A stretch of DNA of 64,000 nucleotides from an uncultured bacterium. GTDB taxonomy: Bacteria > Electryoneota > B3-LCP. The position numbers were made by a program, and so were the translations under genes. Under the pieces are notes generated by a model. It ran no database searches and was not told the origin of the DNA. It saw nothing but the letters and a program-made list of their open reading frames with translations. The stretch spans positions 746-64,745 of the forward strand of contig CAZUTK010000005.1 in NCBI GenBank assembly GCA_964623265.1, written 5' to 3'. Shown here piece after piece: positions 3,006-48,700 of this stretch. Each line of letters begins with the position of its first letter. Position 1 is the stretch's first letter.

Positions 3006-3413
3006 ATGCCGATCCTCCTATCCGACGATACCGTTTCCCTCGAATTCATCCGCAAAGTGGAAGAGATCAGCGGCGAGAATTTCAGCCAATGCATGCAATG
3101 CGGCACCTGTTCTGGAATGTGCCCGATGATCGGGCAGATGAATCTGACGCCTCGCCGCCTGCTGTTGCTGACCCGGTTCGGACAGAAGGAGACGGTGCTG
3201 GGCGCCAACACCATCTGGCTGTGTGCCTCGTGCCACAGCTGTCTGGTGCGCTGTCCGCGCGGTTTGGATCTGCCCAAAATCATGGAGGCGGTGAGGCAGA
3301 TCGTCTTGCGCACCAATGAGAATTATCTCGAGCCTTTCGAGGTGCCGGACGAGATTTTGGAAGGTGTGCCTCCGATCGCACTGGTGAGCTGTTTCCGCAA
3401 ACACACGGCGTAA
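3006..3413 (+). CDS. hdrC: Heterodisulfide reductase subunit C-like protein with two [4Fe-4S] ferredoxin motifs.
   Basis: 'CMQCGTCSGMCP' and 'CASCHSCLVRCP' are two CxxCxxCxxxCP motifs. The size (135 aa) fits HdrC. Confidence 0.65.
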   Translation: MPILLSDDTVSLEFIRKVEEISGENFSQCMQCGTCSGMCPMIGQMNLTPRRLLLLTRFGQKETVLGANTIWLCASCHSCLVRCPRGLDLPKIMEAVRQIVLRTNENYLEPFEVPDEILEGVPPIALVSCFRKHTA

Positions 3414-3421
3414 GGTTGAAG

Positions 3422-4312: not shown

Positions 4313-4412
4313 GGATAGAACCACGCAGGTACGTGCTGCCTGAAATAAACTTACTTAAGGAAATTTCTATCACCGGGATGAAACCCGGATCTAAGGATCA
4401 ACGAGGCGTTCG

Positions 4413-5225
4413 ATGAGCGTGAAAGAAAAGGCCGTTCAGGAACCGGAAATGCCGGTGGTGCAAGAGAATTTGATCCCCATCTATATCATGGGGAAAAGAT
4501 ACGATGTGCCGGAATCCCTGACGATCATGAAGGCGATGGAGTATGCCGGATACAAGTTCATCCGCGGCGCGGGCTGCCGCGGCGGCGTCTGCGGCGCCTG
4601 CGGGACGGTGTACCGGCTGCCGGGCGACTATCACATCCGAGTCGGGCTGGCTTGCCAAACGGTGGTGATTCCCAATATGTATCTGACGCAGATTCCGTTT
4701 TATCCCGCCAACCGCGCGGTCTTCGACTGGAACAGCATCAAGGGAGAGGCGGAGGAGGTCTATAAAGCCTATCCTGAGCTGTTTCGCTGTCTGGCGTGCA
4801 ACGCCTGCTCGAAGGTTTGTCCGATGGATATCCCGGTCATGGATTACATCGCGGCGATCAAGCGCGGGGATCTGGATAAGGCGGCGGAGATTTCGTTTGA
4901 CTGCATTCAGTGCGGATTGTGCGCCACGCGCTGCATGGGGGAGATGGCGCAGTATCACATCGCGCAGATGGTGCGCCGTTTGCGGGGCCGTTTTATCTCC
5001 AAGCCCAGCGCGCATTGCGACCATCAGGTGGAAGCCATCCGGTCGGGATATTACGACGGCTACATCAACGAATTGAAGGCGTTGGGGGCAGTGGATCCCT
5101 TCGCGGCGAAAAAAGGGGATGCAAATATCGAGAAGCTGAAGAAGCTCTACAAGGAGCGGGAAGAGGAGCCGCACACCGCGGACGATCGTTGGAAACCGCA
5201 GAGCGATTACGCTCTGTTGAAATAG
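4413..5225 (+). CDS. Succinate dehydrogenase / fumarate reductase iron-sulfur subunit family protein (2Fe-2S plus two 4Fe-4S motifs).
   Basis: A 2Fe-2S motif 'GCRGGVCGACG...C'. Motifs 'CLACNACSKVCP' and 'CIQCGLCATRC'. It is followed by the flavoprotein gene. Confidence 0.6.
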   Translation: MSVKEKAVQEPEMPVVQENLIPIYIMGKRYDVPESLTIMKAMEYAGYKFIRGAGCRGGVCGACGTVYRLPGDYHIRVGLACQTVVIPNMYLTQIPFYPANRAVFDWNSIKGEAEEVYKAYPELFRCLACNACSKVCPMDIPVMDYIAAIKRGDLDKAAEISFDCIQCGLCATRCMGEMAQYHIAQMVRRLRGRFISKPSAHCDHQVEAIRSGYYDGYINELKALGAVDPFAAKKGDANIEKLKKLYKEREEEPHTADDRWKPQSDYALLK

Positions 5226-5314
5226 GAAGACGTTGGACCGGCGCAGACCGCGCCGCACCGGCTGAGCTGCGAAGGGAGAATCAAGCCGGCGAAATTGAGA
5301 GGAAACGAGGAGAA

Positions 5315-6988
5315 ATGGGCTATCCGGACGGATTAAAGCAGTTGATCAAGAGGGTGGAAGCGACCCGCCCCGAGCGGATCGCACGCAAGAAAGCCGGTCA
5401 GGAGTTTCCGGCGTTGAGCTTGGAAGATCGGCACAAGGTGTTGCACGCTTTTCACCCGGATGTCAAGGAAGAGGGGCGCCGGGAAATCACGGTGGGTCCG
5501 AATAAGGGGTACCGAATCTGCCATGAGATGGTGGATTTGCTGGAGGCGCGCAGCCGCGTCAATCCGGATAAGATTGACCTGACGCGTTGGGATTATGAAA
5601 CGGATGTTCTGGTGATCGGCGGCGGCGGCGCCGGCACGGCTGCAGCTCTGCTGGCTCAGGAACAAGGCGCCAAGGTGATCATCGCCACCAAGCTGCGCCA
5701 CGGCGACGCCAATACGATGATGGCGGAAGGCGGCATCCAAGCCGCCACGAAAGGGTGGAAGGATTCGCCTTACTATCACTACTTGGACGTGATGGGCGGG
5801 GGCCACTTCACCAATGTGCCGGAATTGGTGGAGAAGCTGGTCACGGAAGCGCCGGACGTCATCCGCTGGCTGCTGTCGCTGGGCTGCAACTTCAGCAAAT
5901 ATGAAGACGGCACTCTCCAGACGATGCACGGGGGCGGCACCTGCCGCAAACGGATGCATTTCGCGGCGGATATCACCGGCGCGGAAATGATGCGCACCAT
6001 CCGGGACGAAGCCCGCAACCGCGTGAAGGATATCACCGTGCTGGAATTTTCGCCCGCCGTGGAATTGATTCTGAACGATAAGGGTCGCTGCGCCGGCGCG
6101 GTGCTTTACAATATGGAAACCGCCGAATACATCATCGTAAAGGCGAAATCGGTGGTGATGGCGACCGGCGGTAGCGGCAGGCTGCACGTGCAGAATTTCA
6201 TGACCACCAACCACTATGGCGCCACCGCCGACGGGATTGTCCTGGGCTATCGAGCCGGCGTTCCGGTTTGCTTTCTGCACACCATCCAATACCATCCCAC
6301 AGGCGTCATTTATCCGGAACAGGCGGAAGGCATCCTAATAACGGAGAAGTTCCGCGGCGCCGGAGCCAATCTGGTCAACGTGGACGGCGAACAGTTCGTA
6401 TTCGAACGGGAGCCTCGGGACATTGAAGCCGCCTGCATCATCCGCGAATGCGTGGAGCGGGGCAAAGGCGTGCCCACTCCGACCGGCAAGTTCGGGGTCT
6501 GGCTGGACAGCCCCATGCTGGATTTGATGTTCGGTTCGGGATATGTGAAGAAGGAGTTCCCCGGCAAGCACATCTTGTACAGCCGGTTCGGCATTGACAT
6601 CGGCAAGGAACCGATGCTGATTTACCCCACGCTGCACTATCAGAACGGCGGACTGGAGTTCAAGGCGGACGGTTCGACCCGCATTCCAGGATTGTTTGTA
6701 GCCGGGGAAGTCGGCGGAGGCGTGCACGGGGAGAACCGGCTGATGGGCAATTCCCTGCTGGACATCATGGTCTTCGGGCGCATCGCGGGGACCAGCGCCG
6801 GAAAGTATGCGCTGAATGATTTTCAGGATGGAAAGCTCACGTTGGATCACGTCAGAAAATATCACCAGGAATTAGAAAAAGCGGGAGTCGGACAGGATCG
6901 CATCGCGCCGATGCTGCTGCCGGATTATACGCTGGAGCACGTCAAGGCGAAGCAGTTGACGGCGCATTACGAGGGCACGCTTCGCTAA
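5315..6988 (+). CDS. Fumarate reductase / succinate dehydrogenase flavoprotein-like subunit, non-covalent FAD type.
   Basis: 'DVLVIGGGGAGTAAA' dinucleotide fold. 'NTMMAEGG' has Asn where SdhA carries the covalent-FAD His ('SHTVAAQGG'). 'YHPTG' active-site motif. Start chosen at ATG 5315 with RBS 'gaggag', so the annotated 4910 start that overlaps the upstream gene is rejected. Confidence 0.65.
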   Translation: MGYPDGLKQLIKRVEATRPERIARKKAGQEFPALSLEDRHKVLHAFHPDVKEEGRREITVGPNKGYRICHEMVDLLEARSRVNPDKIDLTRWDYETDVLVIGGGGAGTAAALLAQEQGAKVIIATKLRHGDANTMMAEGGIQAATKGWKDSPYYHYLDVMGGGHFTNVPELVEKLVTEAPDVIRWLLSLGCNFSKYEDGTLQTMHGGGTCRKRMHFAADITGAEMMRTIRDEARNRVKDITVLEFSPAVELILNDKGRCAGAVLYNMETAEYIIVKAKSVVMATGGSGRLHVQNFMTTNHYGATADGIVLGYRAGVPVCFLHTIQYHPTGVIYPEQAEGILITEKFRGAGANLVNVDGEQFVFEREPRDIEAACIIRECVERGKGVPTPTGKFGVWLDSPMLDLMFGSGYVKKEFPGKHILYSRFGIDIGKEPMLIYPTLHYQNGGLEFKADGSTRIPGLFVAGEVGGGVHGENRLMGNSLLDIMVFGRIAGTSAGKYALNDFQDGKLTLDHVRKYHQELEKAGVGQDRIAPMLLPDYTLEHVKAKQLTAHYEGTLR

Positions 6989-7446
6989 ATGAATGCGAGT
7001 CGCGGGATGGTGCCGCGGCGTCGCAATAAAAACAATACAAATGATTTGTTTTTATTGTCAGGATAATTGTTATAATTATATCAATATATGAAGCTGCAGG
7101 AGAATTCATTCCGAGGCGAGGCGTGGAGAAGCTCAATCCCGAAGAACAGGACGGAACGATCGGGCGACGGCAGTGCGGCATTCCGGAGAAAGGGGTGCTC
7201 TTCCTCGTCTCTACGCCCCATCCAGCGGCTCTCTGCCTTCCCTTGCCTGCGAACTGCAGACGACTTCCGGATGAACTGCAACTTCTTTTGTGATACGAAG
7301 TCTGCAAGGACTTCAACGGACGTTGAAAAAACAGCATCTTCCTGTTGAAATTCACCCGGAAATTGCATATATTGCAGGGAGACAAATAAAAATATTCACA
7401 ATACTTGTTATGATGTTAACAAAGAAGATAAAAAGAAAGTGGCGAC

Positions 7447-8988
7447 ATGGCATCCCTGAATGAACAGACCACCGTTCAGACTGAAAGAGAAAAGCCACGC
7501 GACGCTGTGGAATCCTCTCGTTCGTTCAACTTGCAGGTCATCGCGAAGAAGTTGGATTGGAAGAGAGGGTTCTTCATTTTTTTGGGTCTGGCGCTTTTCT
7601 TGGCGGTTTATTGCGCGCCGCCTTTTGCGGATGCTGTAGATCCTCAGGGAAAGCATTTCGTCCTCTCTCAGGAAGGGAAAGCCGCATTGGGGCTCTTCCT
7701 GCTGGCTTCCACCTGGTGGATTTTCGAGGTGGTTCCGATCGGCGTGACGGGGATCCTCATCGGAGTTGTGCAGGCGCTGTTTCTCATCCGCAAAGCGGAC
7801 GTCGCGTTCAGCAATTTCTTCGATCCGTCGGTCTGGTTCATCTTCGCTTCGCTGGTCATCGGCAGGACCTTTACTAAAAGCGGGCTGACGCAGCGTATGG
7901 CGTATAATATGCTGGTGATGGTCGGCGAGAAGACCAGCATGATCTATCTGGGGTGTTTTGCGCTGATCGCGCTGCTCACGCTGCTGATGGCTCACACCGC
8001 CGTAGCCGCCACGGTCTATCCGCTTCTGGCGGCGATTTATTCCTTGTATCAGGAGGACAACCAGCCCACCCGTTTCGGCAAGGGGTTGTTCATCGGGATG
8101 GCGTTCGTGGCTGGGGCCGGCAGCATCGTGACGCTGTTGGGCGCCGCTCGCGGCGCCGTCGCCATCGGCTTCTTCAAGGATATGGCGGGACGGGAGATTT
8201 CGTTTGCGGAGTACACCTATTACCAGCTCCCCATCGGATGGATTATGGTTCTGCTGCTTTGGGCGTTTTTCATGATCTTCTTCAAGCCAGAGCGGAAGAC
8301 CATCCCGGGACTGCGCGAACGGGCGAGAGGGCTGGCGGCACGGCTGGGTCCGATGAAGAAGGTGGAATGGCAGACTCTGATCATCGTTCTGGCGGCGATT
8401 CTCATTCTCAGCCTGAGGTCTTTTATACCCGCCTTGATGCCGTTGGACAAGACGGGCATCATTCTGGTGACCACGCTGCTATTTTTCCTTCTGAAGATTC
8501 TGACGCTGCAGGATCTGGAGGAGATTCCTTGGAACATCATATTGCTTTTTGGCGGAGCGATGAGCATCGGCTTTTGCCTCTGGCAGACGGGGGCGGCAAG
8601 CTGGCTGGCTGTGCATTGGTTGACTTTGTTCCAACATGCGCACTGGTTTCTCTTCATCATGGGCATCGCCTTTTTCGTGTTGATCATGACCAATTTCATT
8701 ATGAATGTGGCGGCGATCGCCATTTCGATGCCGATCGCTCTGGTGATCGCTCCCTACCTTGGTGTAGCGCCGGAAATCGTGCTCTTCGCTTCCCTGGTGA
8801 CGGCGGGTATGCCCTTTATGTTGTTGATCGGGGCGGCGCCCAACGCCATAGCCTACGAGAGCAGACAATTCACATCTGCTGAATTTTTGCGCGCCGGGAT
8901 CGTCGCCAGCGTCTTGCTCCTGCTGGTGTTGGGAGTATTCATTCTGGTGATCTGGCCTCTGATGGGGATGCCGGTTCTGGCGAAGTGA
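7447..8988 (+). CDS. Anion permease of the ArsB/NhaD superfamily (DASS/SLC13-like); likely a di/tricarboxylate or other anion transporter.
   Basis: Multi-TM protein of 513 aa. The C-terminal hairpin motif 'GAAPNAIAY' is paralogous to the permease domain of the 11317 gene ('GTPNNAIAF'). It sits at the head of the signalling operon. Confidence 0.55.
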   Translation: MASLNEQTTVQTEREKPRDAVESSRSFNLQVIAKKLDWKRGFFIFLGLALFLAVYCAPPFADAVDPQGKHFVLSQEGKAALGLFLLASTWWIFEVVPIGVTGILIGVVQALFLIRKADVAFSNFFDPSVWFIFASLVIGRTFTKSGLTQRMAYNMLVMVGEKTSMIYLGCFALIALLTLLMAHTAVAATVYPLLAAIYSLYQEDNQPTRFGKGLFIGMAFVAGAGSIVTLLGAARGAVAIGFFKDMAGREISFAEYTYYQLPIGWIMVLLLWAFFMIFFKPERKTIPGLRERARGLAARLGPMKKVEWQTLIIVLAAILILSLRSFIPALMPLDKTGIILVTTLLFFLLKILTLQDLEEIPWNIILLFGGAMSIGFCLWQTGAASWLAVHWLTLFQHAHWFLFIMGIAFFVLIMTNFIMNVAAIAISMPIALVIAPYLGVAPEIVLFASLVTAGMPFMLLIGAAPNAIAYESRQFTSAEFLRAGIVASVLLLLVLGVFILVIWPLMGMPVLAK

Positions 8989-9024
8989 CAGTTCGCTTAC
9001 GGCGGGATAACTGCGCATATCGGG

Positions 9025-10707
9025 ATGGCGGAAGAATCGAAAAACACCGCGACGGCGGGCGGCAGGATCCTCCGGGATCGGTATTATCGGGAACTGCTGC
9101 GCAAGAATCTGTTGCGTCTGGCGTTCACCTATCTCGCCCCTCTCGTTCTCCTGACCATCTATTTTTACGCGCAATATGTGAATATATCCCGGGAGAGCCG
9201 GGCGCACCATCTGAAATCCGTGGCGGAGCATCAGGCGAATACTCTGGATCTGTTTTTGAATGAGCGCGTCGTCAATCTCGCCAATTTGATTGACGATCCC
9301 AAGTTGAAGATTCCGCCAACCGGCGGCGCGATGGAAGTGATGCTGCACCAGTTGAAGAAAAACAGCGATACATTCACGGATGTGGGTTTTTTCGATTCGA
9401 CCGGCGTGCAGCTCGCCTACGAAGGTCCCTTGCCTTTTTTGGAGAACCGAAATTATTCCACGGAACCGTGGTTCGTCCGCTTGCGGGGGAAGGACGATCA
9501 CTTCATCATTACGGATAACTATCTCGGATTCCGGCAAAAGCCGCATTTCACGATTGCGGTGAGCCGCGAAATTCAGAATCGCTACGTGGTATTGCGCGCG
9601 ACGTTGGATCCGCAGAAGTTTTATGAATACGTCATTGCGCAAGAAGGCTTGAGCGATGTGGATTTGTCGGTGGTCAACCGCGATGGGATCTATCAATTGG
9701 TGTCGCCGAAGATCGGGCTGCCGTTGGAGAGCTCATCGGTAGTGCCGCCGTTGTCGCCGCGCCTGGGCTGGTTGAATTCCCGCGGGGAAGCGAACTCGGG
9801 GGAATTCGCTTACGCCTGGCTGCGGAACGCGGATTGGGCGGTCATCGCCAGACCCTCTGGAGAGAGCGAAAAGATTCCTCTGTTCAGCAGCCGAATGGGG
9901 ATTCTAGTCTTTTCCGCCGTGATCATTTTCGGCGTGCTGTCCGTGATCGTCATCCGTTCGAAGAAGCTGGTGGAGCTGCAGATTGAGAAGGAGATTACCA
10001 AGGCGCAGTTCGAACATGCCGCCAAGCTGGCGTCCGTGGGGGAGTTGTCCGCCGGCATCGCGCACGAGATCAACAATCCGCTGGCGATCATCGCGGAAGA
10101 GGTCGGATTGATCAAAGACCTGATGAATCCGGAGTTCAAGACGGGCACCGCCTTCGAGGATTTAAAGCCTCACCTCGACAACATCCACGACGCGGTCTTC
10201 CGTTGTCGCGACATCACCCGCAAGCTGCTGAGTTTCGTGCGCAAGACGGACATCAAGCTGAAGCCGCACCACATCAATATGTTGATTGACGAAATCGTGG
10301 ATGCCTTCTGGATACGCGAGATGGAAGTATCCAACATCGTCATAGAGAAGAGATACGCCGCGGATCTGCCGGAGATCGTTACGGACGGGAATCAGCTCAA
10401 GCAGATCTTTTTGAACATTCTGAATAACGCCGCGGACGCAATCACTCCGCCCGGAAAGATTACGATATCCACCTCCTATGCGGATGACCACATCTCCGTC
10501 GCCATCTCGGATACAGGCAAGGGCATCACTCAGGAACAGATGGAGAAGATTTTTCTTCCGTTTTATACGACCAAGGAACCGGGGAAGGGCACCGGTTTAG
10601 GGCTGTCGGTGAGCTACGGGATCGTGAAGAGTCTGGGGGGGAAGATCCTGGTCGAAAGCATTCCGGGGAAGGGGAGCGTTTTCACGGTGGTGCTGCCGGT
10701 AAAATAG
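9025..10707 (+). CDS. Sensor histidine kinase with a periplasmic Cache-like domain between two TM helices.
   Basis: H-box 'AGIAHEINNPLAII', N/G-box region 'LNILNNAADA...DTGKGI...GTGLGLSV'. Two hydrophobic segments flank a ~250 aa extracytoplasmic domain. Paralog of the 15285 kinase. Confidence 0.8.
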   Translation: MAEESKNTATAGGRILRDRYYRELLRKNLLRLAFTYLAPLVLLTIYFYAQYVNISRESRAHHLKSVAEHQANTLDLFLNERVVNLANLIDDPKLKIPPTGGAMEVMLHQLKKNSDTFTDVGFFDSTGVQLAYEGPLPFLENRNYSTEPWFVRLRGKDDHFIITDNYLGFRQKPHFTIAVSREIQNRYVVLRATLDPQKFYEYVIAQEGLSDVDLSVVNRDGIYQLVSPKIGLPLESSSVVPPLSPRLGWLNSRGEANSGEFAYAWLRNADWAVIARPSGESEKIPLFSSRMGILVFSAVIIFGVLSVIVIRSKKLVELQIEKEITKAQFEHAAKLASVGELSAGIAHEINNPLAIIAEEVGLIKDLMNPEFKTGTAFEDLKPHLDNIHDAVFRCRDITRKLLSFVRKTDIKLKPHHINMLIDEIVDAFWIREMEVSNIVIEKRYAADLPEIVTDGNQLKQIFLNILNNAADAITPPGKITISTSYADDHISVAISDTGKGITQEQMEKIFLPFYTTKEPGKGTGLGLSVSYGIVKSLGGKILVESIPGKGSVFTVVLPVK

Positions 10708-10736
10708 AGAAGAAGAAATAAAGGGAGAGGCCGGTT

Positions 10737-11312
10737 ATGGCATTGGAGAGAGTGAAAGATATCATGTTGTCTCTGGACGACTACGCCGTCGTGGGGATGG
10801 AAGCCACGATGGTGGATGCGTTGTGCGCTCTGGAGGCGGCGCAGAAGAAACTTCCGCCGGATCGCCAGCCCCATCGCGCCGTTCTGGTGGTGGACGACAA
10901 GGGCAACATCGTCGGGAAGTTGGGGCATCTGGCATTCTTGAAGGGACTGGAGCCGAAATACGACAAGATCGGCGACATCAACGTGCTTTCCCGCGTCGGA
11001 CTCAGCCAGGAATTCATCAATTCCATGCTGGACAATCTGAGTCTCTGGAAGGAGAGCTTTGAGGATTACGTGCAGCGGGCTCGCAGGACGAAGGTGAAAG
11101 ATGTGATGCACTCGGTTGTAGAGAGCATCTCAGAAGACGCGCCGTTAAGCGAAGCGGTGCATAAACTGGTCATGTATCAGACCCTATCCCTGCTTGTCAC
11201 TCGGGGCGAAAAGGTCGTTGGGATATTGCGGCTGTCCGATCTCTTTTCCGTGATCGCGCATATCATTCGGAAGAAAGTTGGCTGCGGTGAAGAAACAAGC
11301 CAGGAGAAGTGA
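10737..11312 (+). CDS. CBS-pair domain protein (stand-alone).
   Basis: Two CBS-like repeats across ~190 aa. No other domain is evident. Confidence 0.5.
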   Translation: MALERVKDIMLSLDDYAVVGMEATMVDALCALEAAQKKLPPDRQPHRAVLVVDDKGNIVGKLGHLAFLKGLEPKYDKIGDINVLSRVGLSQEFINSMLDNLSLWKESFEDYVQRARRTKVKDVMHSVVESISEDAPLSEAVHKLVMYQTLSLLVTRGEKVVGILRLSDLFSVIAHIIRKKVGCGEETSQEK

Positions 11313-11316
11313 CCCT

Positions 11317-13389
11317 ATGCCGAAAGTGCTGCTAATTGATGATGAGGACAAGTTTCGGACGTCCCTTGCCGACCGCCTCAAACTGCGAGGATATGCGAAC
11401 ATCGCCTTGAACAGCGGTACGGACGTCGTCAAAATCATCCGCAAGGATCCTGAGATTGATGTTGTGGTGCTCGATCGTCAAATGCCGGGCATCAGCGGGG
11501 AGCAGGTATTGCGAGAGATCAAGCAATACCGTCCCGAGTTGCAGGTCATTATGCTGACGGGGTACGGCAGTGTGGCGTCGGCTATGGAAACCGGGCGTCT
11601 GGGCGCTTTCGCCTACCTCGAGAAGCCCTGCGATTTCGACCAGTTGATCGAAACGATCGAGCGGGCGCGCAAGGACAAGGCGCGTGTGCTGGAGAAATAC
11701 GAGATCGCTGAAATCCAGAAGGATTCCCTCCTGAAATGGTGCTGGGGCAGACACAATTACCGTCCGGGGATCATCCTGTTGGGCGTTCTGATTTTCGCCG
11801 CAACGATTCTGATGCCCACTCCGCGCAGGCTGATCGAGATTCTCTCCACTCCGAAGCGGGCTCAAGTTCTAAATCCCACGACGGGCAAGATGGTGGATGA
11901 TCCCAGCGATCCGATCACCGGCTATGCGAGTTTCCGGAAGATGAAGGCGGGGGAGTCCATCGCCGAGTACTACAGTCGTTCCAATAAGCTGGAGAAGACC
12001 GTCAGGGACGAATTCGGCAAGAAGGTGGAGGTGCGCACTCTGACCGCGCAGGAAGCCGCCGTGAAGGCGAAAGTGATGCTGGGGACGCTCTTCGTGGCGG
12101 CGCTTTTCTGGGCGACGGGCGCCATTCCCATCGGCATCACCGCGCTGGTGGTGGGCGTCTCGATGTACTTCATGGGCGTGATGCAGCCGGATGACATTGC
12201 ACAGGCGTACGCCAAGGATGCGGTGATCTTCATCTTCGGGGTGCTGGCGGTGGCGATCGCCATCAGCAAATCCGGTCTGGACAAACGCATCGGGCTATTG
12301 CTGCTGGGACCTTCTAAATCGCTGCCGCGATTGATGTTCTTGTTCCTGCCTATGATTGGGATCGCCTGTTCCTTCCTCTCGGAACACGCGCTGGTGGCGT
12401 TCATCATGCCGCTTTTTATGTTCGTCTACGCAGCTTCCGTGCGGGAGGCGGGGGTCGAGGAGGACGCGCCTCTTGCGGTGATGCTGGTGCTGTCGCTCTG
12501 TTTCGCCGCCAACTGCGGCGGGCCCGGCTCGCCGGCGGCCGGGGGGAGAAACGCCGTGATGGTGGCGATTCTAAGTGATTACGGGGTGGCGCCGTCTTTC
12601 GCGCAGTGGGTGAAATTGGGTCTGCCCTATGTGCCGGTGATGTCGCTGGTCATCGCCACATACTTTTTTCTCGTATTTCGGGGGAAAATCAAGGCGAAGA
12701 AGTTGAATGTCTCCTCGATGGTCAAGCAGGCGGCGGCGAAGATCGGGCCGATGAATCGAAATGAATACATCACCGCCGTGATTCTGATCTTGTTGATCAC
12801 CCTCTGGATCACCGCCAGCGATAAGCTGGGGATGGGCGGTCCAGTGATCCTGGCGCTGGTGCTCTTGAATATTTTCCGGATCGTCACTTGGGGGGACATC
12901 ACCAAGATCCACTGGGAAGTCGTGGCGCTGTACGCCAGCGCCAGCGCAATGGGTAAGGGGCTTGCCGTCACCGGTGCGGCTCTGTTCATGGCGGATGTGT
13001 TCGTCGGGTGGTTGCCGGAATTTCTGCGGACCGGTACAGGATTGGCAGTCGCCAGCAGCATCTTCACAGGGATCACCACTCAGTTTATGAGTGACGGGGC
13101 GACGGTATCCGCCATCGGGCCGGTGGTGGTGCCGATGGCGACGCTGACGGGCACGCACCCTTGGATGGTGGGCTTGGGGGCGGCGTTCGCTTCGTCTTTC
13201 GCGCATATGATGATCATCGGCACACCCAACAACGCCATCGCCTTCACGATGGCAAGAGACCCGGTCACCGGCAAGCAGTTGGTGACATTAGGGGATTTCT
13301 TCAAGCATGGCTTTGTCGTCCTGCTGCTATCCTGGGCGGTGCTCTGGATCTGGCTGTTCTACGGGTACTGGCGCTGGATCGGGTTTTAA
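11317..13389 (+). CDS. Fusion of an N-terminal response-regulator receiver domain to a C-terminal ArsB/NhaD-superfamily (DASS-like) anion permease.
   Basis: REC motifs 'KVLLIDDE', 'VVVLDRQMPGISG', 'IMLTGYGS', 'AYLEKP' in the first ~125 aa, then ~560 aa with 10+ hydrophobic segments ending in 'IIGTPNNAIAF'. The ATG at 11317 has RBS 'caggagaag' and lies directly after the upstream stop. Confidence 0.7.
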   Translation: MPKVLLIDDEDKFRTSLADRLKLRGYANIALNSGTDVVKIIRKDPEIDVVVLDRQMPGISGEQVLREIKQYRPELQVIMLTGYGSVASAMETGRLGAFAYLEKPCDFDQLIETIERARKDKARVLEKYEIAEIQKDSLLKWCWGRHNYRPGIILLGVLIFAATILMPTPRRLIEILSTPKRAQVLNPTTGKMVDDPSDPITGYASFRKMKAGESIAEYYSRSNKLEKTVRDEFGKKVEVRTLTAQEAAVKAKVMLGTLFVAALFWATGAIPIGITALVVGVSMYFMGVMQPDDIAQAYAKDAVIFIFGVLAVAIAISKSGLDKRIGLLLLGPSKSLPRLMFLFLPMIGIACSFLSEHALVAFIMPLFMFVYAASVREAGVEEDAPLAVMLVLSLCFAANCGGPGSPAAGGRNAVMVAILSDYGVAPSFAQWVKLGLPYVPVMSLVIATYFFLVFRGKIKAKKLNVSSMVKQAAAKIGPMNRNEYITAVILILLITLWITASDKLGMGGPVILALVLLNIFRIVTWGDITKIHWEVVALYASASAMGKGLAVTGAALFMADVFVGWLPEFLRTGTGLAVASSIFTGITTQFMSDGATVSAIGPVVVPMATLTGTHPWMVGLGAAFASSFAHMMIIGTPNNAIAFTMARDPVTGKQLVTLGDFFKHGFVVLLLSWAVLWIWLFYGYWRWIGF

Positions 13390-13406
13390 GAGAAAGTGAG
13401 AGAAAG

Positions 13407-13895
13407 ATGCCGGACAAAATCAAACTGCTCATCGTGGACGATGAGGTGAAATTTCTCGATTCCATCGCACAACGTTTGGAGATGCGCGGGCTGCATGTGA
13501 CCAAGGCGAGCAACGGGCAGGACGCCGTGCAATTCGCCCGCAATCAGAAGTTCGATCTGGCGCTGCTCGATCTGAAGATGCCCGGGATGGACGGCAAGCA
13601 GGTGCTGGAAATCCTGAAGAAGGAACACAAGCACATCGAGGTCATCATCTTGACGGGGCACGGATCGCTGGAATCCGCCGTGGAATGCACGAAGCTAGGC
13701 GCCTACGGATATCTTCCCAAACCCTATGAGCTCGACAGTCTGCTGGAGATTCTGAAAGAAGCCTATGAAGCCCGCCTGAAGAAGAAATTCGAGTTCGATC
13801 AGGAGAGGATGGAGAAGATTATGAAGCTGGCGACCGGCAGCAGCCCACTGGGTATCCTGCGATCTCTGCGGGAACTGGATGATGACGAAAAATAA
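13407..13895 (+). CDS. Stand-alone response regulator receiver (CheY-like) protein.
   Basis: 'KLLIVDDE', 'LALLDLKMPGMDG', 'IILTGHGS', 'YLPKP'. There is no output domain. Confidence 0.8.
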   Translation: MPDKIKLLIVDDEVKFLDSIAQRLEMRGLHVTKASNGQDAVQFARNQKFDLALLDLKMPGMDGKQVLEILKKEHKHIEVIILTGHGSLESAVECTKLGAYGYLPKPYELDSLLEILKEAYEARLKKKFEFDQERMEKIMKLATGSSPLGILRSLRELDDDEK

Positions 13896-14028
13896 GACAT
13901 GGGAGCGGCGTTTTTATCGGCAGATCGGAACCCTTCCGGGCTGATGCGAAGTTCACTTATTGAGTATGCGGGGCGAGTTCAGGCTCCGATTTCAACCGGC
14001 GACGATTTAAAAGACGGGGAGAGGACAG

Positions 14029-15288
14029 ATGGCGGTCATAGCTCTGTTCAGCGGATCCTACTGCCACGGCGAAGAGGCGGCGGAAGCCCTGGCGAAAAAA
14101 CTGGGATATCCGTGTATCGAAAAGCAGGTGCTCGCCGAGACGGCTAGCCGGTACTCTCTGTCAGCGGACAAGATTCAGAGGGCGATTCAAGGTCCTCCGC
14201 CGCTTTTCGCCTCCAAATATCATCGGGAAAGGACGGTGATACTGTCCCGTTTGAAAGCGGTGCTGGCGGAATTCATCCAGCCGGATCGGGTGATCTGCCA
14301 TGGGTGTCTGAGCCATCTGATTTCCCGGGACATCACTCATGTCCTGCGGGTGCTCCTCATCGCCAATCAGGATTACCGCGTGCAGACGGCGATGACCGCC
14401 GCGAAACTCTCCCGAAAAGAGGCGGTCAAGCAGATCAAGAAGGACGATGAGGCGAAGGCGCAGTGGACGCAGTTGTTGTTCGAAAAAGCGCCTTGGGATC
14501 CGAGCCTTTACGATATCGTGCTCCCCATGCATGAGACTTCGGTTGAGGAGGCGGTTCGGATTATCGCCGAAAACAGCGCTAAAGAGGCCGTAGCGACGAC
14601 TTCGCAATCTCGGCAAGCCGCCGCGGATTTTCTGCTTCAAGCCCGCGTTGAAACGGCGCTGGGCGAAAAAAGCGACGGGCTGGAAATCCGGTGCACGGAC
14701 GGGCAGGTTACACTTGTGATCAACAAGACCGTCCTGCGGCTGGATCCATTTCAGGAAGAAATCCGGCAGATCGCTGCTGCGGTTCCCGGAGTGAGAAAGG
14801 TGGAGACGAAAGTGGGTCCGAAGTTCAATCAGCCCAGCATCATCCGCGATGTGGATCTCGAGTTGCCGAAGAAGGTTCTTCTGGTGGACGACGAAGTCGA
14901 GTTCGTGCATACTCTTTCGGAGCGGTTGCAGACCCGCAATCTGGGATCGTCCGTCGTGTACGACGGGGAGCAGGCGCTGAATTTCGTCGCCACGGAGGAG
15001 CCCGAAGTGATGGTGCTGGATTTGAAGATGCCCGGGATTGACGGCATTGAAGTTCTGCGCCGGGTCAAGCACGACCATCCCAATGTGGAGGTGATTATCC
15101 TGACGGGACACGGATCGGAGCGGGAGGAGGCGTTGGCGAAGGAGCTGGGGGCTTTTGCTTATCTCCATAAGCCCGTCAACATTGACGTGCTGGCGAAGAC
15201 GATGAAGGAAGCCTATCGCAGGATCAGCGAGAAGAAGGCGTCCGCGGGCGGTGAATCCGGGAAGAGCTCCGCGAATTCGTCATCGTGA
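14029..15288 (+). CDS. Three-part fusion: cytidylate-kinase-like family N-terminal domain with a degenerate P-loop, a BON-like middle segment, and a C-terminal REC domain.
   Basis: N-terminal 'IALFSGSYCHGEEAAEALAKKLGYPCIEKQVL' resembles the Cytidylate_kin2 family but lacks the GxxGxGK/GSGG P-loop. C-terminal 'KVLLVDDE...VMVLDLKMPGIDG...IILTGHGS...YLHKP' is a REC domain. Confidence 0.55.
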   Translation: MAVIALFSGSYCHGEEAAEALAKKLGYPCIEKQVLAETASRYSLSADKIQRAIQGPPPLFASKYHRERTVILSRLKAVLAEFIQPDRVICHGCLSHLISRDITHVLRVLLIANQDYRVQTAMTAAKLSRKEAVKQIKKDDEAKAQWTQLLFEKAPWDPSLYDIVLPMHETSVEEAVRIIAENSAKEAVATTSQSRQAAADFLLQARVETALGEKSDGLEIRCTDGQVTLVINKTVLRLDPFQEEIRQIAAAVPGVRKVETKVGPKFNQPSIIRDVDLELPKKVLLVDDEVEFVHTLSERLQTRNLGSSVVYDGEQALNFVATEEPEVMVLDLKMPGIDGIEVLRRVKHDHPNVEVIILTGHGSEREEALAKELGAFAYLHKPVNIDVLAKTMKEAYRRISEKKASAGGESGKSSANSSS

Positions 15289-16997
15289 GTCAACCTATGC
15301 CTTTCGCATCCGCGCAAAGAGACGATTCCGCCGCCGAGAAATCGGTGCACGGCGAACAGACGCGCTACCGTCGGCTGTGGTGGTATTCCGTGATCCTGAT
15401 GGCGCTGGTTTCGCTGACGCCGCTGGTCATCCTGACCTTCGTCAACATCCACCAGGCGCAGAAAGCCATCCGCGAGGAGATGCGTTTCCCCATCGCGCGG
15501 CTGTTGTCCAATACCAAGAAGGCGCTGGAGTTCGTGATTGCGGAGCGGAAATCCGCTCTGCGGCTGGTCATCAGCGAAAAAGCATATGAGGAGCTGGCGA
15601 GCGATGAGGGGCTGGCGCAGGCTTTCAATAACCTGAAGGAATCGTTCGGCGGGTTCGTGGATCTCGGGCTGGTGGATGCAGATGGCAATCAGAATTTCTA
15701 CGTTGGACCCTATGACCTGAAAGGCAAGAACTACCGGGACCAAGCCTGGCTGCACGAAGTGCGACTGCGCGACGTGTACGTCAGCGACGTCTTTATGGGC
15801 TTCCGGAATTTTCCTCACTTCATCATCGCCGTCAAGCAGAACTCCGCGCGTGGCGGATCTTACGTCCTGCGCGCGACGATTGATATGCACCTTCTCAACC
15901 AGCAGATCACCGCTCTGGATCTGGGACCTTCCAGCGACGTTTTCATCGTCAACGCCGACGGTATCCTGCAGACCAATTCCCGCTTCCACGGCAAGATTCT
16001 CGAACCCTGCACGATCCCGCTTCCCAAGTATTCCGACACCGAAATGATCCAGGAGTTTACCGAGAAGGGTCAATCTTTTCTTCTGGGCTACGCGTTCATC
16101 GAAAAATCGCCGTTCATTCTGATGATCATCCAGAATCAGAAGGATTTGATGCCGAACTGGCTCGCCCGCCGGCAGGATCCCTTCTGGTTTCTGGCGGGCA
16201 GCAGCGTTCTGATTTTGCTGGTTGTACTGGGGGTTTCCACCTATACGGTGCATCGGATCCGCAGCGCCGACATCCGCCGGGCGAAGGCGTTTCACAATCT
16301 GGAATATACGAACAAGATGGCGTCCATCGGGAGACTCGCCGCCAGCGTGGCGCATGAGATCAACAACCCCATCGCCATCATCAATGAGAAAGCCGGATTG
16401 CTGAAGGATATGGCGACCCTGACGCCTGATTTCACGCAACGCGAGAAGGTGCTGAAATTGTTGGATTCCATCCACAATTCGGTGGAACGTGTCAGCACCA
16501 TCACGCATCGTCTGCTGGGATTTTCCCGGCGGATGAACGCGCACATGGAGCTGATTGACCTGCCGTCTTTGCTGAAGGAAGTCCTGAGTTTTCTGGGCAA
16601 GGAGCTGAGCCATCGCAACGTTTCCGTCACCTTCGAGGTTCCGGATAATTTTCCGGCGGTGGAAAGCGACCGCGGGCAACTGCAGCAAGTGTTCCTGAAT
16701 ATCATCAACAATGCGATCGCCGCGATCAAGGAAGGCGGCTGGATCCGATTCACTCTGCTGGAGGTGGAGGCGGGCGGGGTGGCGGTGAAAATCTGCGACA
16801 ACGGCACAGGGATTTCCCCGGAGGATCTGAAACACATCTTCGAGCCTTTCTTCTCCACCAAGGGGGAATTCGGCACAGGACTGGGTCTTTCCATCACCTA
16901 TGACATCATCAAGAAGCTGGGGGGGGAAATTCAGGTGGAGAGTCAGCTGGGGAAGGGAACCTGTTTCACAATCTTATTGCCGCGTCAGAAGGCTTAA
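15285..16997 (+). CDS. Sensor histidine kinase with a Cache-like periplasmic domain; paralog of the 9025 kinase.
   Basis: 'ASVAHEINNPIAII' H-box, 'LNIINNAIAA...DNGTGI...GTGLGLSI' ATPase motifs, TM helices 'LWWYSVILMALVSLTPLVIL' and 'FWFLAGSSVLILLVVLGV'. GTG start overlaps the upstream stop. Confidence 0.8.
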   Translation: MSQPMPFASAQRDDSAAEKSVHGEQTRYRRLWWYSVILMALVSLTPLVILTFVNIHQAQKAIREEMRFPIARLLSNTKKALEFVIAERKSALRLVISEKAYEELASDEGLAQAFNNLKESFGGFVDLGLVDADGNQNFYVGPYDLKGKNYRDQAWLHEVRLRDVYVSDVFMGFRNFPHFIIAVKQNSARGGSYVLRATIDMHLLNQQITALDLGPSSDVFIVNADGILQTNSRFHGKILEPCTIPLPKYSDTEMIQEFTEKGQSFLLGYAFIEKSPFILMIIQNQKDLMPNWLARRQDPFWFLAGSSVLILLVVLGVSTYTVHRIRSADIRRAKAFHNLEYTNKMASIGRLAASVAHEINNPIAIINEKAGLLKDMATLTPDFTQREKVLKLLDSIHNSVERVSTITHRLLGFSRRMNAHMELIDLPSLLKEVLSFLGKELSHRNVSVTFEVPDNFPAVESDRGQLQQVFLNIINNAIAAIKEGGWIRFTLLEVEAGGVAVKICDNGTGISPEDLKHIFEPFFSTKGEFGTGLGLSITYDIIKKLGGEIQVESQLGKGTCFTILLPRQKA

Positions 16998-17010
16998 GCG
17001 GGAGAGCACG

Positions 17011-17382
17011 ATGCAGAAAATCCGCGTCCTGTTGATTGACGATGAAGAGGAATTGGTTTCCACGCTGGTGGAACGTCTGGATATCCGCGGCGTGCAGGCG
17101 GAGTGCGTCACCAACGGGACGGAGGCGTTCGCACGATTGCGGGAGTCGTCTTTCGATGCAGCGGTTATTGATTTGAAGTTGCCGGGGATGAGCGGCATTG
17201 ATGTGATGAAGAGGATCAAATCGGAGCACCCTGAAATGGTCATCCTGTTGACCACCGGTCACGGATCCGTCAGCGAAGAGCACGAGGGAATTCCGCCGGA
17301 AGCCGCAGATGTTCTTTACAAGCCGATTGACATCGAAGTCCTCGTATCTAAATTGAAAAGCTCTCTGCGGGAGGGGAAGTGA
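17011..17382 (+). CDS. Stand-alone response regulator receiver protein.
   Basis: 'RVLLIDDE', 'AAVIDLKLPGMSG', 'ILLTTGHGS', 'LYKP'. 123 aa. Confidence 0.75.
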   Translation: MQKIRVLLIDDEEELVSTLVERLDIRGVQAECVTNGTEAFARLRESSFDAAVIDLKLPGMSGIDVMKRIKSEHPEMVILLTTGHGSVSEEHEGIPPEAADVLYKPIDIEVLVSKLKSSLREGK

Positions 17383-18071
17383 CGGAATCGAAGGCGAGAG
17401 AATGGCTTAACGAGCGCGGACTGGCGTTTTTCGGGAAGATCACCGCCAGCGTCACTCATGAGTTGAACAACGTGATGTCCATCATCGAGCAGGTTTCCGG
17501 GTTGCTGGACGACCTCTGCGCGGGTGCCGAGAGCGGCAGGCCGCTGGAGCCCGAGAAAATCCGGGGGATTTCCGAGCGGATCGGCAAACAAGTGGAACGC
17601 GGGGTGAGTATCATTCAGAGGATGAACAAGTTCGCTCACAGTGTGGACGAACCGGTCAAGAACTTCGACCTCGTTGAGCTGACGGAGAATCTCGTGGAGT
17701 TGTCGCGGCGATTCGCGGGATTGCGCAAGCTGAAGATCGAGTGGCGCCCCCCCGATGCTCGCGTGATGCTTGTAAGCAAGCCCTTCCTGCTGGAGCAGGT
17801 TATTTTCATGGGGATAGATGCGGCGATGCAGAGGTCCCGCCGGGAGGGTGTGATCCGGATCGAGGTCCAGCCGGATGCTGCGGGGGCGCGCGTCGGGATC
17901 TCGACGGAGGCGGAAGCCGACGCGGAGACCGGGATTCCGGATGCGACGGATTCCGATTTTGCGGCGTTACTCTGCGCCGAACTGGCGGCGGATCTGAAAG
18001 CCGGCGCGGCGAACGGGAAATGGAACTGGGAACTTCTGCTTCCTAATTTCAGCGCGGAGGTATCGAAATGA
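17379..18071 (+). CDS. Histidine-kinase-like protein with an intact H-box but a degenerate or absent ATP-binding catalytic domain. Candidate phosphotransfer or phosphatase module.
   Basis: 'ITASVTHELNNVMSII' DHp H-box. The downstream region lacks N, G1 (DxGxG) and G2 (GxGLGL) motifs. There is no TM segment. It overlaps the flanking genes by 4 nt on each side. Confidence 0.5.
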   Translation: MTESKAREWLNERGLAFFGKITASVTHELNNVMSIIEQVSGLLDDLCAGAESGRPLEPEKIRGISERIGKQVERGVSIIQRMNKFAHSVDEPVKNFDLVELTENLVELSRRFAGLRKLKIEWRPPDARVMLVSKPFLLEQVIFMGIDAAMQRSRREGVIRIEVQPDAAGARVGISTEAEADAETGIPDATDSDFAALLCAELAADLKAGAANGKWNWELLLPNFSAEVSK

Positions 18072-18499
18072 GCGATGGAAAAGTGCTGCTGGTGGATGAC
18101 GAGATCGAGTTCACGCAGGCTCTGGCGGAAAGGCTGGAGACGCGGGGGCTGAAGGTGGATGCCGTCAGCAGCGGAAAGGATGCTCTGCAGAAAGCGAAGG
18201 GGGGATCCTACGACGCGGTTTTTCTGGATTTGGCGATGCCGGAAATGGACGGCATCGAAACGCTGAAGAGACTTCTGGCGGAGAATCCCGATCTGCAAGT
18301 GGTGTTGTTGACCGGCCATGCGACGGTGCAGTCGGGGATTCAGGCGGTCAAGCAGGGAGCGATGGATTTTCTGGAGAAGCCCGCCAAGCTGGATGTCATC
18401 CTGGAGAAGATCAAGCAGGCGAAGACCAACCGGATTCTCCTGATCGAGAAGCAGAGCGAAGAGAAGATCAAAAAGATCATGGGGAAGATGGGCTGGTGA
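18068..18499 (+). CDS. Stand-alone response regulator receiver protein.
   Basis: 'KVLLVDDE', 'AVFLDLAMPEMDG', 'VLLTGHAT', 'FLEKP'. Confidence 0.8.
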   Translation: MSDGKVLLVDDEIEFTQALAERLETRGLKVDAVSSGKDALQKAKGGSYDAVFLDLAMPEMDGIETLKRLLAENPDLQVVLLTGHATVQSGIQAVKQGAMDFLEKPAKLDVILEKIKQAKTNRILLIEKQSEEKIKKIMGKMGW

Positions 18500-18509
18500 A
18501 AAACGGACG

Positions 18510-19154
18510 TCAGAACAGCCTGTACCCCATCGTGAACATCGGTTCCACCCAGAGGGTGGAATTGTCACCATCGTAAAAGAGGTTCATTCTCACCGTGACA
18601 TCCACGGAAACGCGGGGATGAAACAGGAAGAAGAGCCCCGGCGAGAGATGCGCGCCGATGGCATCGGAAGGGTCGCGTTCTTCGCGGATGGTGCCTTTCA
18701 ACGGTTCAGTCGTGCTGTAGATTTCATAATTGCCTTCCACCATGCCGAAGTGGACGTAGTCCATTCCGACGCCGAGATAGAGGAAATTGCTTCGATCGGT
18801 GGGGAAAAGCCGTCGAATTTCCAGGGAAGCCGCGTAAAAATCCGCTTTCACGTCCCAGACGTCCGGGGAAAGCGCCGCCAGCGTATCCGTCATCCAGTAA
18901 TAACGTTCCGTGTTGAGTTTGGAATACCCGCCCGTCAGCATCACCTGCGCATTCCAGTCGAACCAGTAGAGCAGTGATACGCCTCCGCCTAGACTGGCGA
19001 GGAAGCGGTCGCGATCCACACCGCCGGGCGACCAGACGTTGCCGGAGGCGGTGAGGAACAACCGGGGTTTCCATTTGGGCGTTTCGCGCGCTTCGGTTGT
19101 TAAGGCGAAGAGCAGCAGGCTGATGATCCAGATCAAAACCGCGAGTTTGCGCAT
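18510..19154 (-). CDS. Putative outer-membrane beta-barrel protein.
   Basis: Signal peptide 'MRKLAVLIWIISLLLFALTTEA'. Alternating amphipathic strands rich in aromatic residues. C-terminal '...MGYRLF' ending in Phe. Confidence 0.4.
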   Translation of the reverse strand: MRKLAVLIWIISLLLFALTTEARETPKWKPRLFLTASGNVWSPGGVDRDRFLASLGGGVSLLYWFDWNAQVMLTGGYSKLNTERYYWMTDTLAALSPDVWDVKADFYAASLEIRRLFPTDRSNFLYLGVGMDYVHFGMVEGNYEIYSTTEPLKGTIREERDPSDAIGAHLSPGLFFLFHPRVSVDVTVRMNLFYDGDNSTLWVEPMFTMGYRLF

Positions 19155-48258: not shown

Positions 48259-48700
48259 TGTGAATTGCGTCGAGAAATGGGATATAATCTCTTGCATCTT
48301 CGAAACGCACTGAAGGGGGAAAAAACGGCGGATCTTCACGGAAAAGCCCTAAAGGATTGATAAAATTCAACTACACCTTGCTTCAAGGATGATTTGCAAT
48401 TAAAAACGATTCTGATGGTATTCCGGTTGATGATTCTGAAAAGCTGGATGGACGGATTCTCCACTAGTCGGTCTGATCTCGCCGAATAGGCAGCCGGCTC
48501 CGATGCCTCGATGGAAAAAATCAACGGTAAGCCGCAACGATTCTGCAAAAAAGGCGTATTTTTATCGAAACCGGATGATGCCGGCGTTTGGCAGTGCGGA
48601 CACCCGGCTAAGCGAATATGAAATATTGGGATTTGATGAGCCTGTTCACACTCAAACGAGTCACGTCGCGTATTTCAAACGCTTTAGAAACGGAGAAAGA

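Follow-up and report, generated by a model that had tools for sequence, protein, structure and literature searches.

A two-cassette signalling cluster with a receiver–permease fusion: a candidate for post-translational control of anion uptake in an uncultured bacterium

The DNA analysed here, hereafter called the window, is a stretch of 64,000 nucleotides (nt) from an uncultured bacterium of the Electryoneota (GenBank assembly GCA_964623265.1, contig CAZUTK010000005.1). Its plus strand carries ten genes between positions 7447 and 18499, labelled g1 to g10 in the 5′ to 3′ direction, and homologues were found for each of the products. Among these are two membrane sensor kinases, five proteins with a receiver (REC) domain, and two anion permeases of the DASS family, one of which has a REC domain fused to its N-terminus. 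The block is the nested union of two cassettes, cassette A (g2–g5) and cassette B (g1 plus g6–g10), each of which turns up in dozens of loci spread over several phyla; the arrangement is far beyond chance. Judging from the sequences, we favour on balance the reading that the two cassettes tune the activity of anion transporters post-translationally and that these transporters most likely import sulfate.

An earlier reading of the letters alone (the sequence-only reading) had described a run of ten same-strand genes for two Cache kinases, a pseudo-kinase, five RECs (three of them stand-alone), a CBS protein and two anion permeases. The ten genes were confirmed at 7447-18499, and Pfam bears out the kinases, receivers, CBS protein and permeases. 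When all ten products were annotated, nearly all of the stated domains proved real; the list had missed the N-terminal part of g6, which is nucleoside monophosphate (NMP)-kinase-like and BON-like.

Two cassettes and their arrangement

Cassette A is ordered kinase, CBS protein, REC–DASS fusion, tailed REC. Its kinase, g2 (9025-10707; 560 amino acids, aa), matches Pfam dCache_1, HisKA and HATPase_c, with the periplasmic dCache domain between two transmembrane (TM) helices. The g3 gene (10737-11312; 191 aa) encodes a small cytoplasmic CBS-pair protein, with a CBS match of 48.7 bits at residues 120-174 and a second, weak match at residues 6-60 (E=0.013). In g4 (11317-13389; 690 aa; Response_reg 81 bits, Na_sulph_symp 123 bits), the REC domain is joined to the DASS permease through a conserved linker and the first TM helix (TM1). 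The last member, g5 (13407-13895; 162 aa; Response_reg 106 bits), is a stand-alone REC with a conserved C-terminal tail of about 45 aa.

Cassette B is ordered transporter, NMP-kinase-like REC, kinase, REC, degenerate kinase, REC. Its transporter, g1 (7447-8988; 513 aa; Na_sulph_symp 165 bits, CitMHS 102 bits), is a stand-alone DASS-family permease. It is followed, beyond cassette A, by g6 (14029-15288; 419 aa; Cytidylate_kin2 106 bits, Response_reg 87.5 bits), which combines an NMP-kinase-like domain with a degenerate P-loop, a BON-like unit and a REC. The second kinase, g7, ends at 16997, begins either at the GTG at 15285 (570 aa) or at the ATG at 15297 (566 aa), and has the same three Pfam domains as g2. 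The remaining genes are g8 (17011-17382; 123 aa; Response_reg 81 bits), a single-domain REC; g9 (17379-18071; 230 aa), a soluble protein of histidine-kinase fold with no Pfam match; and g10 (18068-18499; 143 aa; Response_reg 103 bits), a stand-alone REC with a short C-terminal tail.

How widely are the cassettes conserved? Conservation was counted over 84 non-redundant loci around relatives of the REC–DASS protein (loci of relatives are labelled L0xx), and the neighbours were read within 10 kb on either side of each match. The cassette A genes are nearly always together in these loci. The g2 orthologue (46-68% identity) lies directly 5′ of the CBS or REC–DASS gene in nearly all of them, and a g3 orthologue stands between the kinase and the REC–DASS gene in 72. 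The best-conserved core protein is g5, with 57-83% identity (mostly 70-83%) in L009-L088 and up to 97% in L005. The carriers of REC–DASS comprise Zixibacteria, Calditrichaeota and metagenome-assembled genomes (MAGs) labelled Ignavibacteria, Acidobacteriota and Planctomycetota.

Cassette B always adjoins an anion transporter gene, either SulP or DASS. It was seen in Syntrophales (L091), an Elusimicrobia MAG (L093), Calditrichaeota (L032) and other lineages, with further instances in L094, L040 and L058/L074, and the L091 proteins share 48-64% identity with g1 and g6-g9. The g1 orthologues (56-76%) adjoin g6-g9 or a CBS gene in L007, L032, L040, L058, L074, L076, L083 and L091; the g1 gene stands immediately 5′ of g6 in L040 and L090, and in the window cassette A intervenes. 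The g7 orthologues share 61% identity in L091, 70% in L007 and 65% in L032. The g8 orthologues invariably sit between those of g7 and g9, and a g10-type REC follows the g9 orthologue in L007, L032, L093 and L094; in L091 a g5-type REC of 162 aa takes the place of g10. The whole ten-gene block recurs in L005-L008 and L032, and no flanking genes outside the cassettes are conserved over the 84 loci. The search for synteny in relatives, which the sequence-only reading had advised, thus recovered both the block and its parts.

That reading had also held that the two kinases and the two permeases are local paralogues that arose by duplication, and this explanation was rejected. The identity between g2 and g7 is 32% and that between g1 and g4 is 25%, far under the 46-76% that g1, g2, g4 and g7 share with their orthologues in other phyla. 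Since the paralogues are so much less alike than the orthologues, both splits must be ancient.

A seemingly decayed cassette B is found in the Zixibacteria chromosome CP070796 at 6718-9984 (L090). There, g6 is intact, but the DASS protein is a fragment of 372 aa and g7 a remnant of 225 aa that retains only the dCache part; an intact cassette A lies about 600 kb away (L001).

The ten genes look like a co-transcribed signalling cluster. The intergenic distances from g1 to g10 are, in order, 36, 29, 4, 17, 133, -4 (or +8), 13, -4 and -4 nt; the value of +8 for g6/g7 applies if g7 starts at the ATG at 15297, as its 566-aa orthologue in L005 does. The earlier range of -4 to +30 nt is exceeded at two junctions (36 and 133 nt), and the distance is at most 36 nt at eight of the nine. 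A consensus scan placed no terminator-like site in any intergenic gap, including the 133-nt spacer; its promoter and terminator counts equal the shuffled expectation (14 terminator-like sites in total versus 12.7 expected). Against a single transcript stands the g5/g6 spacer itself (13896-14028, plus strand), which forms the junction of the two cassettes, keeps a similar length in L005 and may hold an internal promoter; the block may be read as two transcripts. A SulP–STAS transporter gene fills this junction in L007/L008 and L032, and in L040, L058, L091 and L093 the two cassettes lie apart or inverted. Of the co-transcription that had been called almost certain, the short gaps and the lack of intergenic terminator-like sites stand in favour, while the conserved spacer and the separability of the cassettes leave it less firm.

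The likely promoter region of the cluster is the AT-rich block directly 5′ of g1 (7383-7446, plus strand; CAAATAAAAATATTCACAA..CTTGTTAT), the sole well-conserved stretch when the 459-nt intergenic region upstream of g1 is aligned with L005. The best sigma-70-like match of the scan (7345-7373) was given no weight, because it is not conserved in L005 and the scan counts do not exceed the shuffled expectation. Rfam gave no match in the whole window at gathering thresholds and ARAGORN found no tRNA gene in it, and thus no riboswitch or RNA element was seen in the 459-nt leader or the 133-nt spacer. Minus-strand open reading frames (ORFs) over g7, g9 and g10 (e.g., 15213-16835 and 17636-18571) were dismissed as antisense shadows, since the plus-strand products have Pfam matches and hundreds of homologues.

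Two further features lie in the 459-nt region. A perfect AT-rich inverted repeat, AATAAAAACAA-N10-TTGTTTTTATT, occupies 7025-7056, 37 nt past the stop codon of the upstream flavoprotein gene; it could serve as a terminator or as a binding site for a protein, and it is not kept as a repeat in L005. In addition, a small ORF of 86 aa lies at 7088-7348 (plus strand), and in the same place the L005 relative, at 90% identity, has a called gene of 72 aa (5850-6068).

A receiver fused to a permease

The g4 fusion is strongly conserved. It has more than 1,900 homologues, the best 120 of which are full-length fusions throughout (64-90% identity), and a genome scan found relatives of the fusion encoded in 508 species genomes. 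The residues S137, W141, G144, H146, N147, R149 and P150 in its linker and TM1 are invariant, and an insert of about 80 residues lies between TM1 and TM2. The REC–DASS arrangement also occurs in one Thermodesulfobacteriota protein.

Moreover, the domains encoded around this DASS subfamily are fused in other ways elsewhere. Protein P0259 is a USP–DASS fusion. REC–CBS fusions beside an unfused DASS protein occur in Electryonea and in Desulfococcus multivorans, where the locus (L089) is ordered histidine kinase, REC of 151 aa, REC–CBS, DASS. The Elusimicrobia MAG L093 encodes a Cytidylate_kin2–CBS fusion of 448 aa (10564-11910, minus strand) beside a g9–REC–DASS unit, and g6 itself is a Cytidylate_kin2–REC fusion. 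By Rosetta-stone reasoning, these alternative fusions link the DASS subfamily with four domains (REC, CBS, USP and NMP-kinase-like), and, together with the invariant linker and TM1 of g4, they argue for a physical or functional complex. The g3 protein aligns with the CBS part of the D. multivorans REC–CBS fusion (27% identity, E=2e-9).

Pfam detected no helix-turn-helix or other DNA-binding domain in any of the ten proteins, as the sequence-only reading had stated. Post-translational control fits this lack of a DNA-binding output, and it seems that proteins, not transcription, are where anion uptake is switched.

Both permeases are clear members of the DASS family (TC 2.A.47) by the Na_sulph_symp profile (PF00939), with 165 bits for g1 and 123 bits for g4 at a cut-off of 27; on the TIGR00785 “dass” model, g1 passes the cut-off (199.0 versus 198.6). 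The best Protein Data Bank (PDB) match of g1 is VcINDY (E=5.6e-30), to which g4 also aligns (E=5e-21), and g1 also shows a detectable relationship to Pho90, a phosphate carrier of yeast with the DASS fold (E=6e-13). At the hairpin tips, g1 has AHT and MNV where VcINDY has SNT motifs. In the alignment of g4 with VcINDY, ISNTA corresponds to LSEHA and TSNVA to MSDGA, and the binding-site motifs of g4 read SEH, GGRNAV, SDG and GTPNNA. Since the SNT motifs are replaced, the specificity cannot be read from the solved structures. The DASS protein of D. multivorans shares with g4 the signature S-[E/D]-H, G-R-N, [S/A]-D-G.

The SEH and SDG motifs of g4 (residues 354-358 and 591-595; window positions 12376-12390 and 13087-13101) are invariant in 11 REC–DASS proteins, and the Desulfococcus homologue is similar at these hairpin-tip positions. 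The acidic residues at both tips hint at another coupling ion or binding chemistry.

Cassette A: In the scheme that we propose, the periplasmic dCache domain of g2 would read the external anion, and g2 would phosphorylate the fused REC of g4 and the tailed REC g5. The elevator-type permease would be switched on or off by the phosphorylation state of the g4 REC and by g3, whose CBS pair probably senses adenosyl ligands or the energy status. Such gating would yield a rapid switch-off of high-affinity uptake. We infer the kinase–REC partners and the sign of the effect on transport from the sequences.

Receivers, kinases and a predicted relay

All five REC domains have an intact catalytic set, with the equivalents of CheY D12/D13/D57/T87/K109. 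In the alignment, columns D8, D9, D53, T81 and K103 are invariant across the five domains and CheY. The HisKA and HATPase_c scores of g2 and g7 exceed the Pfam cut-offs, and both kinases have the H box AHEINNP, the N box NNA and the motifs D(T/N)G(K/T)GI (DTGKGI in g2) and GTGLGLS. The D. multivorans DASS-locus kinase aligns with g2 over its full length (32% identity), and the REC of 151 aa from that locus shares the tail motif of g5 (38% identity).

What is the role of g9? Pfam finds no HATPase_c domain in this protein, and its sole PDB sequence match is the kinase ZraS (E=6e-4). Its AlphaFold model, with a confidence score (pLDDT) of 92.8, nonetheless has a complete DHp and CA histidine-kinase fold, namely two long helices followed by an alpha/beta domain, and Foldseek matches it to HK853, ZraS, DivL and RetS at E~1e-12. 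Its identity to the DHp–CA part of g7 is 27%. An H-E-x-x-N motif is conserved across 59 homologues, with no exception at H27 and N31 and almost none at E28, while no residue is invariant in the CA half (after position 111), from which the N, G1 and G2 boxes are absent. The g9 gene is always flanked by two REC genes. The protein thus combines a DHp four-helix-bundle element bearing a conserved histidine with a CA-like domain devoid of ATP-binding motifs. The “pseudo-kinase” label given earlier therefore holds, and, as judged from the model and the alignment, g9 is a pseudo-kinase that retains its phospho-histidine site. It could act as a histidine phosphotransferase or as a phosphatase.

Cassette B: A kinase gene, a REC gene, the gene of a degenerate kinase whose histidine is invariant and a second REC gene follow one another, which amounts to a His-Asp-His-Asp relay-like layout. 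We propose that the second dCache kinase, g7, would pass phosphate to g8 as the first acceptor, then to H27 of g9, and finally to g10 as the terminal acceptor, with the NMP-kinase-like REC g6 as an additional branch. The outputs would act on the stand-alone permease g1 and, in relatives, on the SulP–STAS transporter. The relay-like network acting on proteins that the sequence-only reading had envisaged gains support from this gene order and from the REC–permease fusion, by inference from sequence and synteny.

The strongest competitor to the relay is credible, though we hold it to be the less probable of the two. Here g9 would be a REC phosphatase, or a DivL/RetS-like pseudokinase that binds phosphorylated g8 or heterodimerises with g7, and cassette B would be a branched one-step system with phosphate sinks. 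HisKA phosphatases of the EnvZ and HK853 families bear the signature H-E-x-x-N, which the conserved E28 and N31 of g9 suit. Consistently, DivL and RetS are among the nearest folds. Neither the PDB sequence search nor the Foldseek top 50 showed homology to Spo0B or ChpT; the top 50 are ordinary kinases together with DivL, RetS and LvrB, which weighs against a phosphotransferase role. On the other side, the histidine is kept in 59 of 59 homologues, whereas DivL has lost it, and the order kinase, REC, g9, REC, which is that of phosphate flow in a relay, is strict in L007, L032, L091 and L094.

The g6 protein is unusual as well. Residues 1-280 were modelled by AlphaFold with pLDDT 92.2, and Foldseek on the model assigns the N-terminal 190 residues to the P-loop NMP-kinase fold. 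The closest structures, 3fdi and 3hdt, belong to uncharacterised proteins of PF13189 (TM-score on the target 0.76-0.82); CMP, adenylate and shikimate kinases come next. The Walker A motif GxxGxGK[S/T] is missing; FSGSYCHGEE stands there, with no Lys-Ser/Thr. Next, the model shows an alpha-beta-beta-alpha-beta unit, which we call only BON-like, since the BON match is weak and partial (E=0.012). This architecture is common to more than 4,400 homologues. In g6 and all 40 homologues aligned with it (41 sequences), residue 12 is a cysteine that lies next to a histidine.

The P-loop position FSGSYCHG comprises residues 7-14 of g6 (window positions 14029-14070). With this cysteine, the kinase-fold domain may possess a site for sensing through a thiol or a metal.

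The transported anion, the level of control and known systems

Which anion do the permeases carry? Sulfate is the candidate that we favour, with modest confidence, on the evidence of gene neighbourhoods and family models. QmoC equivalogs above the curated cut-off lie beside cassette B in L058, L074 and L091, the last of which also has QmoA/B-like genes. The flanking genes further include those for adenosine 5′-phosphosulfate (APS) kinase (5 loci), tandem DsrC-family proteins (4), DsrK-like proteins (4) and the N-terminal domain of the siroheme synthase CysG (3). The co-clustered SulP proteins pass the cut-off of the “sulfate permease” subfamily. Further support comes from the binding-site signature common to g4 and the D. 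multivorans DASS protein, whose locus is built like the DASS-type sulfate-transporter clusters published for sulfate reducers in 2025. Moreover, the lineages that carry REC–DASS overlap those reported to have non-classical DsrAB.

Several observations weigh against this assignment. On TIGR00785, g4 scores 172.8, under the cut-off, and both permeases lack the canonical SNT substrate/Na+ motifs. The same SulP proteins also match the DauA model, under its cut-off, and the DASS and SulP families both include dicarboxylate carriers. Sulfur-related neighbours occur in just 13 of the 84 loci, and dsr, apr, sat and qmo genes are absent from the 64-kb window. Finally, the block adjoins a Tfr/Frd-like operon both in the window and in its closest relative, L005; in L066 (Zixibacteria) a flavoprotein with 73% identity is encoded less than 10 kb from the core, and sdhAB-sucCD flanks the decayed cassette B in L090.

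Another inorganic oxyanion, such as thiosulfate, sulfite, phosphate, molybdate/tungstate or selenate, could be handled by the same architecture, and we regard this as unlikely, though it deserves some weight. The binding-site motifs are unlike those of every characterised DASS protein, Pho90 is within detectable reach of g1, and several oxyanions are imported by bacterial DASS-related permeases (cited in PMC5840216). The DsrC and DsrK-like neighbours would suit sulfite or thiosulfate equally well. In contrast, the QmoC and APS kinase neighbours indicate the sulfate/APS level of the pathway, the SulP proteins stand above the sulfate permease cut-off, and the expression data on homologous DASS genes of sulfate-reducing bacteria relate to sulfate (PMC5840216).

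The operon upstream of the block raises a further candidate. It comprises four genes (3006-6988, plus strand) for an HdrC-like protein (best match the N-terminal part of QmoC), an HdrB/SdhE-like CCG protein, a 270-aa Fe–S protein and a TfrA-like flavoprotein, all under the curated cut-offs, and its product is a bacterial Tfr-like or type-E Sdh-like enzyme. The flavoprotein is nearest to the thiol:fumarate reductase TfrA (330 bits), then to the SdhA/FrdA models; an assignment as AprA was rejected, as its best NCBIfam matches are TfrA, SdhA, FrdA and NadB, and AprA is not among the matches listed. The sequence-only reading had joined this operon and the block into a locus for sensing, transport and respiration of fumarate/succinate or another anion. 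In that case, C4-dicarboxylates would be sensed and imported for the adjacent HdrCB and Frd/Tfr-like oxidoreductase. The adjacencies in L005, L066 and L090 speak for this idea, as do the facts that the best solved homologue of g1, VcINDY, is a dicarboxylate carrier and that the SulP family includes DauA. However, L007/L008 and L032 have the ten-gene block but no Frd-like operon next to it, nearly all of the 84 loci have none next to the core, the association being confined to a few Zixibacteria, and a 459-nt spacer separates it from g1 in the window. In addition, neither permease has the SNT motifs with which VcINDY binds carboxylate and Na+, the genes that recur nearby in other loci encode Qmo, APS kinase, DsrC, DsrK-like, CysG and SulP proteins, and the dCache kinases belong to the sulfate-transporter-cluster family, not with DcuS or DctB. 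We consider C4-dicarboxylates improbable as the substrate, and the oxidoreductase-linked version of the idea is improbable too; the link to the upstream operon is not conserved, and the hedge “or other anion” was the part of the earlier proposal that held.

A transcriptional output, exerted through a distant DNA-binding regulator while the local RECs serve mainly as phosphate sinks or insulators, is very doubtful: NtrC-type sigma-54 activators with a REC are the commonest non-core neighbours (12 of 84 loci), one lies with a PAS kinase in the window at 39918-42937, and in the model published for sulfate reducers in 2025 the response regulators are assumed to control promoters (PMC11887813), but the pair in the window is about 21 kb away, on the opposite strand and with its own kinase, most loci, the window included, have no DNA-binding regulator in or beside the cassettes, and the covalent REC–transporter fusion with its invariant linker, like the REC–CBS, USP–DASS and Cytidylate_kin2–CBS fusions, argues that the transporters themselves are the target.

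How does the block, read as a post-translational control system for anion transporters, compare with known systems? Clusters of the same parts have been published. PMC11887813 (2025) described DASS-type sulfate-transporter clusters of sulfate reducers with Cache kinases, response regulators and CBS proteins, termed the regulators “WalR type”, drew promoter control and invoked an MgtE analogy for the CBS proteins, with no biochemistry. The D. multivorans locus L089, which could not be matched to the locus tags of that paper, shares with the window its binding-site signature and has identities of 34% for the DASS protein, 32% for the kinase and 38% for the tailed REC. The published clusters differ from the block in several respects. 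In the window a REC is fused onto the permease, and all five REC proteins lack a DNA-binding domain, as do the RECs of L089. The window also adds a second cassette with an NMP-kinase-like REC and an ATP-blind kinase-fold protein, and its host is a MAG, whereas the published hosts are cultured sulfate reducers. In our literature searches, whose coverage was incomplete, we did not find a REC–permease fusion, a Cytidylate_kin2–REC regulator or an ATP-blind kinase between receivers described. The cluster type is thus already published, and these three features, together with the lack of a DNA-binding regulator, appear to be new.

The permeases share the Na_sulph_symp fold of the VcINDY/SLC13 elevator transporters over the whole transport domain, and differ from VcINDY in that the SNT tips become SEH/SDG in g4 and AHT/MNV in g1 and that g4 adds the N-terminal REC. 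The SPX domain binds inositol pyrophosphate. The yeast carriers Pho90/Pho87 (PDB 8r33) likewise have an N-terminal cytosolic regulatory domain on a DASS-fold carrier; there it is SPX instead of REC, the system is eukaryotic, and there is no kinase cassette. In the Spo0F–Spo0B–Spo0A and CckA–ChpT–CtrA/CpdR relays the component set is the same, and the window encodes four such components in relay order. It differs from them in the lack of a sequence match or top-ranked fold match to Spo0B or ChpT and in a terminal REC without a DNA-binding domain, and its relay is a predicted one. Finally, a CBS pair is tied to a membrane transporter in MgtE, OpuA and ClC, as here, where the pair is the separate 191-aa protein g3 and is fused in relatives to a REC or to the NMP-kinase-like domain.

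Sulfate respiration begins with the uptake of sulfate, which helps to set its rate, and the transporters and their control have so far been inferred only from genomes. DASS genes of Desulfobacterium respond to the sulfate concentration, and the high-affinity sulfate system needs to be switched off against over-accumulation (PMC5840216, which also defined the DASS groups). Should the fused REC indeed gate the permease, a two-component system would here clearly control a secondary transporter directly and not gene expression, and the rapid switch-off of high-affinity sulfate accumulation, known for a long time, would become accessible at the molecular level. The REC–DASS protein, with 64-90% identity in its best 120 homologues, could mark regulated anion uptake in newly recognised DsrAB lineages, and the alternative fusions make the interaction network directly testable. 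A broader proposal we advance only tentatively, with somewhat more doubt than belief: REC–DASS would be a response regulator with a secondary transporter as its output, with interchangeable CBS, USP and NMP-kinase-like co-regulators and a four-step relay via an ATP-blind kinase, by which hundreds of uncultivated species of DsrAB lineages would switch sulfate uptake for respiration in seconds, without transcription.

Elsewhere in the window, the genes at 39918-42937 (minus strand) encode a PAS histidine kinase and an NtrC-type sigma-54 activator (REC, AAA+ and HTH_8), the latter being the only DNA-binding response regulator among the window genes scanned with Pfam. A type IX secretion signature is spread over 33-2675 (plus), 31740-38090 (minus), 44015-48172 (plus) and 57861-60512 (minus); it includes a 2,116-aa SprA-like protein, and a peptidase C25 and a subtilase with the Por_Secre_tail sorting domain, which the L005 orthologue of the 33-2675 product also has. 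Such a signature suits an FCB-group host or one from the Zixibacteria. Two tandem asparagine-synthase-like paralogues (GATase_7 and Asn_synthase) lie at 48503-52491 (plus strand).

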